Shown here piece by piece: positions 13,631-14,198 of a DNA stretch of 20,586 nucleotides. Each line of letters begins with the position of its first letter. Position 1 is the first letter of the stretch. The position numbers and the translations under genes were made by a program. The notes under the pieces were generated by a model, which was given only the letters and a program-made list of their open reading frames with translations, did not search any database and had not been told where the DNA came from. The stretch comes from a virus (Duplodnaviria; Heunggongvirae; Uroviricota; Caudoviricetes): IMG/VR virus record IMGVR_UViG_2563366976_000012, positions 1 to 20,586 of that record; one strand, given 5' to 3'.

Positions 13631-14198
13631 ATTAGTCTCAGTTTTCCTTGGGTGGTTTTGGAGGAACTGGAGGCTTTTGTCTTAACGGCACATGCCTCTC
13701 CTCATACTTATCTACACATAGATCCATATAAATCCTTATCGTTGTTGGGGAGGGTTACATAATAACCAAATCCTTGTTGTTGGGGAATAACCAGGTCCAC
13801 CTCGCCTGATGTGGCTAAAAGCAGGCACATAACAGCTAAGTATTTTCAACCAGAGAGAATCCTTAGCGTTGTGGTGAATGCGCAGGCTGATGCGCGAAAG
13901 ACATTGCAGCTATTGCGGAAAAGAGCTGTTCGGCGGGGCAATTAAACGCCCGTGAGAGTCTGAAATAACCGCAAGCCGGAGATCAGCACCGGTCACCACA
14001 ACAGCCACTGCTTTGGCGGTACCAGTTTGTACCCTTGCTTCCGGCTGGTACCGCTCTTTTTACAAAACAGAGAAGAGCATCACCGGACGACGGGCTCATA
14101 ACCCAATCCATCCGGGCGGCTGTCACCGCAGGTGTTCTTCTCTGTTTTGTGGAGAAACCAACCGACCTTGCAGGGTCGGTATGATGAGGAGCAGCAAA

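Follow-up and report, generated by a model that had tools for sequence, protein, structure and literature searches.

A covarying three-way-junction RNA carrying an initiator-tRNA anticodon-arm sequence upstream of the early-left genes of a lambdoid prophage

The early-left region and the interval upstream of yfdP

The interval from 13631 to 14198 in a 20,586-nucleotide (nt) stretch of viral DNA (IMG/VR record IMGVR_UViG_2563366976_000012; the whole stretch is referred to below as the window) lies directly upstream of yfdP, and contains a 106-nt three-way-junction RNA, termed module C, in which the best-conserved part copies the anticodon arm of the initiator transfer RNA (tRNA). Judged by its gene order, the window is a lambdoid prophage of the SfV/mEp460/ST64B-like type, and it is matched at 100% by a prophage of Escherichia coli 23CRST038 that is inserted beside mlrA. 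In the RefSeq annotation of this identical locus, a rightward series of genes (yfdP, yfdQ, yfdR, yfdS ... xis, int) starts at 14199. A first-pass annotation, made from the letters of the window, had described the interval as a structured non-coding leader and had likened a boxA-like motif followed by a large stem-loop to the put antiterminators of phage HK022, with a small RNA (sRNA) or a translational control element as alternatives. The results described here support the view that the interval is non-coding, is probably transcribed with the early-left operon and, from 13861 onward, is a real, selected RNA structure.

Upstream of the interval, cro and a LexA-family cI-like repressor gene face each other (Table 1). 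The operator-like repeat AACTAAG(N4)(C)TTAG is present in two copies between these genes (12064-12136) and in one copy at 12843-12866. The cI-like gene is followed by a hairpin (12799-12830) and, directly beyond it, by a promoter that is likely to be PL and the probable source of the leader transcript. Since the repressor gene is followed by this operator-overlapped promoter approximately 1.3 kb before yfdP, the interval would constitute the distal part of an untranslated leader of about 1.3 kb. Within 13600-14200, no sigma-70 promoter for module A or C was found at the scan threshold, and the sequence TTGCTT-17-TTTTAC in this range was judged by eye to be too weak. The only gene annotated between PL and yfdP is the 164-amino-acid (aa) gene on the minus strand, antisense to the PL leader, and transcription from PL would cross it in the antisense direction. 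No N-like gene is annotated by RefSeq between the repressor and the early-left genes; a 103-aa plus-strand open reading frame (ORF) at 13035-13346, considered as a hidden N candidate, has no family match.

All of the sequence features listed in the first-pass annotation were located, although they belong to other things than had been proposed. The direct repeat is present as AATCCTTATCGTTGTTGGGGA (13731-13751) and AATCCTTGTTGTTGGGGA (13769-13786), together with a third copy that had been missed, AATCCTTAGCGTTGTGG (13858-13874); the three occurrences of AATCCTT(N0-3)GTTGT compare with 0.01 expected, and this number was reached in 0 of 100 shuffles. The palindrome GGTTA/TAACC at 13753-13767 is also present, and with 5 base pairs (bp) it is weak evidence when taken alone. 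The 13-bp inverted repeat (14063-14075 and 14137-14149) is the lower part of the basal helix of C and extends, in a repeat search, to 25-nt arms (14062-14086 and 14126-14150, 84% complementary); the GC-rich 61-nt loop that it was said to enclose is no loop, and consists of the rest of the basal helix and two side arms. The 7-bp hairpin that precedes the Shine-Dalgarno sequence and the ATG of yfdP is likewise found (module D). Two further structures had not been listed, namely a 135-nt domain closed by GTTGTGGTG (13868-13876) and CACCACAAC (13994-14002) and an 11-bp hairpin at 14015-14055.

The description of the interval as a structured leader holds for its distal part. The fold of 13858-14205 has an energy of -145.6 kcal/mol (z = -5.85, reached by 0 of 100 shuffles) and that of 14040-14200 a z score of -6.21 (0 of 200 shuffles), whereas 13631-13860 does not fold beyond chance (z = -0.22). 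The ordinary fold of the latter segment indicates that the structured element begins at about 13861, not at 13631.

Table 1. Positions of genes, signals and RNA modules in the early-left region of the window.
Feature	Position	Strand	Basis or remark
cro	11854-12054	-	faces the cI-like gene
LexA-family cI-like repressor gene	12152-12778	+	faces cro
Likely PL, TTGCCA-17-TAGATT, overlapping operator copy AACTAAGTTAAGTTAG	12834-12862	+	promoter scan
Module E, 62-nt RNA with closing stem and two hairpins	12877-12938	+	conservation, RNAalifold
Hairpin GCGCCCTACCGGACGC followed by boxA-like CGCTCTTTAAAAAT	12952-12983	+	"first" boxA of the first-pass annotation
164-aa gene	13136-13630	-	RefSeq; phrog_6315 match, E 9e-64, function unknown
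AATCCTT(N0-3)GTTGT, three copies	13731, 13769, 13858	+	third copy is the 5' edge of module A
Module A, STnc100/PasD-like scaffold RNA	13861-14003	+	mosaic unit, conserved ends, variable centre
A, closing stem GUUGUGGUG/CACCACAAC	13868-13876 with 13994-14002	+	fold
A, 5' hairpin GCGC-AGGCUGAU-GCGC	13880-13895	+	
A, variable centre	~13897-13975	+	
A, 3' hairpin CCGG-AGAUCAGCA-CCGG	13976-13992	+	
Module B, terminator-like hairpin GGCGGTACCAG/CTGGTACCGCT	14015-14025 with 14045-14055, then C and U5 (14057-14061)	+	fold
Module C, three-way-junction RNA, 106 nt	14053-14158	+	covariation, covariance model
C, basal helix	14062-14081 with 14131-14150; extendable, U14057-61 with 14151-14155	+	
C, arm 1, with GGG-CUCAUAA-CCC at 14092-14104	14083-14115	+	
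C, arm 2	14116-14129	+	
Module D, 7-bp GC-rich hairpin	14161-14180	+	between C and the ribosome-binding site
Shine-Dalgarno sequence GAGGAG	14187-14192	+	yfdP ATG at 14199
yfdP, first early-left gene	14199-14561	+	RefSeq annotation of the identical locus; phrog_204

Module C is a plus-strand RNA with a copy of the initiator-tRNA anticodon arm

Homologues of C were retrieved from IMG/VR by a conserved arm sequence, reduced to 29 distinct variants and aligned. In this alignment, 95.2% of the cells of the C structure are standard pairs, as compared to 38-49% when the 3' partner is slid by one to three columns. Ten pairs are changed on both sides (for example, G-C in 16 variants and C-G in 13; C-G in 20 and A-U in 6), and the covariation score was reached by none of 500 shuffles. 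The basal helix, of 20-25 bp, comprises 20 contiguous pairs that are 95% paired over the 29 variants, with one conserved mismatch position. In addition, C keeps U.G and G.U pairs that would be mismatches on the opposite strand, and its covariance model scores 119.6 bits on the plus strand of the window versus 44.7 bits on the minus strand. These results show that C is a plus-strand RNA structure with a covarying basal helix. The covariation check proposed in the first-pass annotation therefore came out in favour of the helices of C, whereas the covariation in the scaffold of module A is thin because of its high conservation.

C does not belong to one particular gene. Its length variants (106, 107, 108, 109, 110, 114, 125, 129 and 133 nt) do not differ in steps of three, which rules out coding, and the first gene after it is yfdP in most loci and one of at least four others elsewhere, which means that C is not a yfdP-specific operator. 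At all lambdoid loci examined, C forms part of a 5' leader, and an ORF starts 30-60 nt beyond it. The hairpins found at the position of D differ among homologues, for instance GGCGG-UGGCAAC-CCGCC in ST64B and GCCCC-UAC-GGGGC.

Of 5426 complete E. coli genomes, 2488 (46%) carry C at 80% or more coverage, in as many as five copies each, and C is also present in phages of Salmonella, Shigella, Klebsiella, Enterobacter and Kosakonia. Most RefSeq records carry no annotation over it. The Rfam scan suggested in the first-pass annotation (Rfam 15; whole window at the gathering threshold, 13400-14400 at E <= 10) placed no family over C and gave nothing over the interval beyond chance-level matches; nor was a family placed over C in seven loci with C-like modules. 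A literature search with the element sequences returned no paper, and the literature on yfdP and on ST64B sRNAs yielded nothing on this leader. Neither the C family nor the joining of C and A as cassettes in unrelated phages (see below) appears to have been described before, the kinds of element represented here (prophage sRNAs, terminators and tRNA mimicry) being known ones.

Arm 1 contains CGGGCTCATAACCC (14091-14104), 14 nt that are identical to nt 29-42 of the E. coli initiator tRNA metZ and comprise the three G-C pairs typical of initiator tRNA together with the whole anticodon loop CUCAUAA. The longest identity with metZ among 2000 shuffles of C was 11 nt, and the tRNA-Met(CAT) of the phage itself has 6 nt in common with C. 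An Rfam tRNA search of 13400-14400 at E <= 10 gave no match. C is a partial mimicry of a tRNA, not a tRNA gene.

To obtain an independent sample, loci retrieved through the A motif alone were searched with the C covariance model. C-like modules of 23-46 bits were found in unrelated viral contigs, twice in phage RCS47; their stems differ, and arm 1 keeps the form ACGGG-NNCAUAN-CCCAAUC. The retention of this frame while the stems differ indicates that the CAU and its frame are under selection. The exact identity with the initiator tRNA (tRNA-fMet) is particular to the E. coli-type allele.

Neither Rfam nor a sequence search of the literature revealed another element with an initiator anticodon arm. 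The T4 stable RNAs C and D were rejected as relatives, having no match to the C model (best 10.8 bits), and at C-like loci Rfam gave no match to YrlA with a meaningful score. A scan of contigs with ACGGGNNCATNNCCCAATC proved too degenerate, most of the 120 matches listed being due to chance; the true C elements among the matches listed came from E. coli, Enterobacter, Phytobacter and Kosakonia only. The arm GACGGGCTCATAA(C/T)CCAATCC was also seen in differently closed scaffolds of about 65-90 nt (IMG/VR contigs L015, L027, L046 and L172), some with a UCCUAACC loop in the second arm and, in L015, just upstream of a start codon. These scaffolds suggest that the family is wider than modelled.

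Upstream modules and mosaic organisation of the leader

A sensitive BLAST search of 13850-14200 against phage genomes gave partial matches of several classes, which break off at helix boundaries (13861/14003, 13994 and 14056/14162). The P1-like phage RCS47 and Shuimuvirus IME207 match the segment 13861-14003 alone (98% identity), and its first 35-40 nt or so are also found in Ackermannviridae, Uetakevirus and Jilinvirus phages. The segment 13994-14200 is matched in cdtI and Stx2c phages, whereas Salmonella ST64B and Klebsiella Kp4866-6 match 14056-14162 alone (84-86% identity). The order A-B-C is kept in many phages, while the upstream promoter/operator set and the downstream first gene vary.

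Module A has two conserved ends and an exchangeable centre. A scan of viral contigs with its 5' 15-mer gave 37 unique A elements that have both ends in common and wholly different centres of 70-200 nt. The loops of its two hairpins are complementary (GCUGAU, 13886-13891; AUCAGC, 13982-13987). By direct reading, the 5' hairpin shows C-G to U-A changes in contigs L150 and L184, and the loop-loop pairing one matched change, GCGAU/AUCGC, in L184. A adjoins tRNA genes in RCS47 and IME207, and often in other phages.

The architecture of A is that of STnc100: a closing stem, GGUGAAU, a 5' hairpin, a variable centre, a 3' hairpin and a terminator. Alleles at the A position reach 27-43 bits on the Rfam STnc100 model, all below its gathering threshold of 47 bits (phage Kati, 43.4 bits, E 4e-8; ST64B, 35.1 bits), and the Kati alignment, whose allele has its ends in common with A, covers all elements of STnc100 (RF02076), with hairpin B aligned as the terminator. 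According to a preprint, STnc100 and PasD are prophage sRNAs that are related, act by base pairing and differ in their seed regions (10.64898/2026.05.13.724894), which fits a conserved scaffold with a variable centre. On these sequence comparisons, we conclude that A is probably a divergent relative of the STnc100/PasD superfamily and, by the Rfam criterion, not a member; the sRNA that the first-pass annotation had offered as a fallback suits this module. The Pas sRNAs were rejected as a match for the leader, the contexts given in the preprint being the late region and the structural operon (10.64898/2026.05.13.724894). The late region of the window (1374-1963, minus strand) contains tRNA-Met(CAT), two tRNA-Arg genes and, beside them, a canonical STnc100 (1430-1638, 131.7 bits).

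Module B reads GGCGGUACCAG...CUGGUACCGCU, an 11-bp stem, followed by C and U5. A hairpin ending 2 nt or less from a run of U5-7 was found upstream of C in 60 of 62 unique sequences, and a run of at least five T precedes C in 121 of 126 loci. These hairpins have a median energy of -19.7 kcal/mol and stems of 11-14 bp in the variants, and their stem sequences vary (GGCGGUACCAG, GCGGCAUC, CUGGCGG, GUCGGCGUC and UGCCCAUC). B thus reads as a predicted intrinsic terminator; a simple terminator scan missed it because of its unusually large loop. The boxA-like GCTCTTTTTAC at 14053-14063 that the first-pass annotation pointed out is present, and its reading as boxA was rejected because it consists of the 3' arm and U tract of this hairpin. 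Among homologues, its GCTC part takes other forms (GCCC, CACT, CATT, ACCT), with hairpin and U run retained, and in the comparison of GCTCTTTTTACAA in the window with GCCCTTTTTAC, CACTTTTTTAC, CATTTTTTTAC and ACCTTTTTTAC the T run alone is kept.

Module E starts 8-15 nt after the -10 element of PL. In phages of E. coli, Salmonella, Klebsiella, Yersinia, Pantoea and Pectobacterium, its sequence is found behind promoters that have a wide variety of operator sets. RNAalifold gives 15 pairs, four of them with compensatory changes that fall in two helices (for example, CG 9/GC 6/UA 3 and GC 9/UA 6/AU 3). A better boxA than the 14053 motif, GCTCTTTAAAAAT, lies at 12971-12983, where relatives carry GCTCTTTAACAAT; we take this site to match the rrn boxA consensus. 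In many relatives, E is followed by a hairpin and then by the canonical boxA GCTCTTTAACAAT; in the window, this order of hairpin and boxA lies in a leader that has no annotated N gene. The E/boxA arrangement is not found in all C-bearing phages, being absent from mEp460. A boxA protects long untranslated transcripts from Rho (PMC7665894). Signals such as E and boxA are to be expected where terminator B and a 1.3-kb untranslated stretch lie in the path of polymerase, and they are better candidates than C for N-independent antitermination.

The modules are joined differently elsewhere. In other phages, a C-like module stands directly 5' of an A-type RNA, and its 3' arm ...UGCUCUUUCCGUUGUG doubles as the first strand of the A closing stem GUUGUGGUG; the equivalent junction reads ...GTGCTCTTTCCGTTGTGGTGAATG. 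Repeats such as AATCCTTAGCGTTGTGG resemble this C-A junction, and the copies at 13731 and 13769 are accordingly read as probable vestiges of module junctions. In the window, GGAGAAAC and hairpin D after C resemble the start of the A scaffold (GGUGAAU and a hairpin), which places C again 5' of a "cargo", here the yfdP message.

Several loci display further combinations. RCS47 carries, at 2501-3320 (+), one A-type element and two units of a C-like module joined to A, all in a row and directly after tRNA-Asn and tRNA-Thr; its record has the protein genes plp and upl on the minus strand over these RNA units, which may be spurious. IMG/VR contig L162 has at 9260-9620 (-) a gapless row of promoter, isrJ sRNA (Rfam, 60.5 bits), terminator, C-like module and A-type RNA, and hence the same sRNA-terminator-C logic as the window. 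A further conserved non-coding block was seen upstream of A in mEp460 (~3260-3500) and Kp4866-6 (~2015-2290), the latter also having two T-arm-like sequences (GGTTCGATTCC and GTCCGTTCGATTCGGAC) at which ARAGORN calls no tRNA. The yfdO-yfdP spacer of the E. coli K-12 prophage CPS-53 has none of A, B and C and shares only the last 25 nt or so before yfdP; for this reason, the published SrsR binding sites in that spacer were set aside as irrelevant here.

Elsewhere in the window, two tandem genes for Rha-family regulators contain two copies of a C4 antisense RNA and isrK pair (9782-9970 and 10648-10833, minus strand; Rfam, 62-81 bits), and the AsxR anti-sRNA is matched in the late region (+) exactly at its own threshold (63 bits).

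Interpretation and relation to known systems

We favour, with moderate confidence, a composite picture in which the interval is composed, as a mosaic, of RNA modules that are inherited independently of one another, and is not a single regulatory hairpin. After induction, PL would fire and drive the leader transcript, and module E with boxA would allow RNA polymerase to traverse the long untranslated leader. Termination at B would give an sRNA of about 200 nt composed of A and B, whose variable centre may recognise targets and whose terminator hairpin and U tail would form the usual Hfq-type 3' end. In transcripts that pass B, C and D would precede the coding part of the yfdP...xis-int message, with C as a tRNA-like module 5' of its cargo, just as it is fused 5' of A-type RNAs elsewhere. 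Within this picture, the reading of C that we prefer is that it might serve as a decoy for a factor that reads the initiator-tRNA anticodon arm, such as an anticodon nuclease (for example, a VapC-type toxin), methionyl-tRNA synthetase or the 30S P site; in addition or instead, its long basal helix might be a processing or protective element for the 5' end of the downstream RNA. Each of these two roles is a tentative guess, and we give them roughly the same weight. A wider proposal, which we regard as speculative and rather unlikely, is that C-type modules are an undescribed phage RNA family that mimics the initiator-tRNA anticodon arm, is expressed from the outset of the early programme and in the tRNA clusters of virulent phages, and acts in trans on a host factor recognising tRNA-fMet, for instance by diverting toxins that cleave tRNA-fMet (such as VapC) as a decoy or by modulating translation initiation; combined with A-type scaffolds, the modules would make up a modular, recombining "RNA cassette" system across unrelated enterobacterial phages.

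Several observations weigh against parts of this picture. The loop of B is of about 15-19 nt or branched, outside the typical 3-8 nt, and both the terminator role of B and the sRNA composed of A and B are predictions from sequence. The A of the window itself has no Rfam STnc100 match in 13400-14400 even at E <= 10. As to C, the mimicry covers only 3 bp of the anticodon stem, with no T arm, D arm or CCA end seen, and ARAGORN places no tRNA in it, its three tRNAs of the window lying at 1714-1963. The main C set was seeded with the arm-1 motif, so that the invariance of the motif in that set is partly built in, and in the independent sample the loop itself varies (CCCAUAA, CUCAUAA, UUCAUAU and GUCAUAU; CUCAUUC in Phytobacter). 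No protein partner is linked to C.

The most serious competitor, to which we assign a low probability, is that C controls the early-left message in cis. The N gene of phage lambda is controlled through a leader hairpin sensitive to ribonuclease III (RNase III). In a comparable scheme, RNase III would cut the helix of C, or the helix would mask or position the ribosome-binding region; either would determine how stable the message of the first gene is and how well it is translated. The tRNA-like loop would then have no role of its own or would be the binding site of a regulator. The arrangement is suggestive: a continuous helix of at least 20 bp stands 40 nt before the start codon and is followed by hairpin D and the Shine-Dalgarno sequence, C keeps its place shortly before an ORF in the 5' leaders of lambdoid loci, and its helix is as long and as nearly unbroken as an RNase III site requires (about 20 bp or more of double-stranded RNA), cleavage itself being at most predicted. 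However, the first gene varies, hairpin D and the Shine-Dalgarno sequence are not conserved along with C, and C-like modules also precede non-coding A-type RNAs and occur in the tRNA regions of virulent and P1-like phages. Moreover, the near-invariant sequence of arm 1 exceeds what an RNase III site needs, and within the window no cis target complementary to the anticodon-like loop was found.

The N-independent antiterminator of the HK022 put kind that the first-pass annotation proposed would be compatible with the lack of an annotated N-like gene, the long operon and the presence of a conserved structured RNA in the early leader, and yet it appears very unlikely. RNAs of the put kind bind the zinc-binding domain of the beta-prime subunit of RNA polymerase and suppress both pausing and termination. 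HK022 putL, located via the residue numbering in PMC9378689, and the HK639 putL-like RNA, as annotated, match each other (E 1e-7 and 5e-4), whereas their similarity to 12800-14250 is confined to words of 8-9 nt (E >= 0.58) and the put signature GAACGGCGCG...UAAACCAUGCGUCGG...CGGCAAU is not found there. The architecture of C is different, and C, some 1.2 kb away from the promoter, follows the only clear terminator, B, on which it therefore cannot act; no plus-strand terminators above chance were detected in 14200-20586 on which it might act instead. The supposed boxA is conserved as a U tract, and the put/nut position is occupied by E and the better boxA. A role at the DNA level, with the modules as recombination "linkers" or as an att-site relic derived from an initiator-tRNA gene and the RNA structure as a by-product, is of similarly slight probability. 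Many phages integrate in tRNA anticodon loops, the mosaic breakpoints coincide with GTTGTG/CACAAC stems, and junction-like repeats are scattered upstream. Conversely, compensatory changes keep the pairing, the wobble pairs work on one strand only and the covariance model strongly favours the plus strand; the prophage sits beside mlrA and not in a tRNA gene, and the loops of C-like modules are unlike any host tRNA-fMet. Finally, we attach almost no credence to the possibility that the interval encodes small proteins or an N-terminal extension of YfdP, as in some phage records. ORFs are present at 14013-14561 (+), 14035-14184 (+) and 13983-14387 (-), the Kati record annotates a 226-aa protein through A, B and C, and the mEp460 record has two minus-strand ORFs here. 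In accordance with the earlier judgement that no convincing ORF is present, RefSeq annotates none in 13631-14198, the lengths of C homologues differ by 1, 2, 3, 4, 8 nt and more, that is, also by non-multiples of three, the substitutions are paired across helices and not concentrated at third codon positions, and the centre of A is replaced wholesale between phages.

A covariation-supported 106-nt RNA is thus present in nearly half of the complete E. coli genomes and yet has no Rfam family, and its tRNA-like part provides a handle for experiments. If C is a decoy, it would represent a new RNA-level answer of phages to host tRNA-directed defences or to translation initiation; a role of C in processing, if it has one, would account for the separation of early-left messages from leader sRNAs. 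The antitermination candidates of the N-less lambdoid group (SfV, ST64B, mEp460 and several Stx phages) are moved to the conserved RNA after PL. Several ORFs in phage records that overlie these elements are probably spurious.

Among the known systems, the put RNAs of HK022 and HK639 resemble the locus in being structured RNAs encoded in cis in the early leader of lambdoid phages that have no N. They are of about 70 nt, form two stem-loops and are placed between the promoter, which they follow closely, and terminators (PMC9378689), in contrast to C, with its three-way junction far from the promoter and beyond terminator B. E is like put in position and size and unlike it in sequence, the words in common being of 8 nt or less. 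The GCTCTTTTTAC motif resembles the GCUCUUUAACAA of boxA elements, the sites of antitermination by Nus factors (NusB/S10), which are found in rrn operons, lambda nut sites and CRISPR leaders, but as a hairpin end with a U run it is not conserved as boxA in homologues. With the RNase III site of the lambda N leader, C has in common a long helix that follows the early promoter region and precedes the first early-left gene; it differs in having a conserved branched top, in being portable between genes and in also preceding non-coding RNAs. For modules A and B together, the closest counterpart is STnc100 (RF02076)/PasD, whose plan is equal and which is likewise associated with prophages and tRNA clusters. 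The differences are in the closing stem, GUUGUGGUG/CACCACAAC in A and GCAUGGUG/CACCAUGC in STnc100, and in the location, A being in the PL leader and STnc100 in the late region beside esterase and lysis genes. Finally, as in the known tRNA mimics (the thrS operator, YrlA, tmRNA and T4 rnaC/rnaD), part of a tRNA is copied within another RNA, and, as for T4 rnaC/rnaD, modules of the A and C types often occur in phage tRNA clusters. What distinguishes C from these mimics is that it copies the anticodon arm of the initiator tRNA only.

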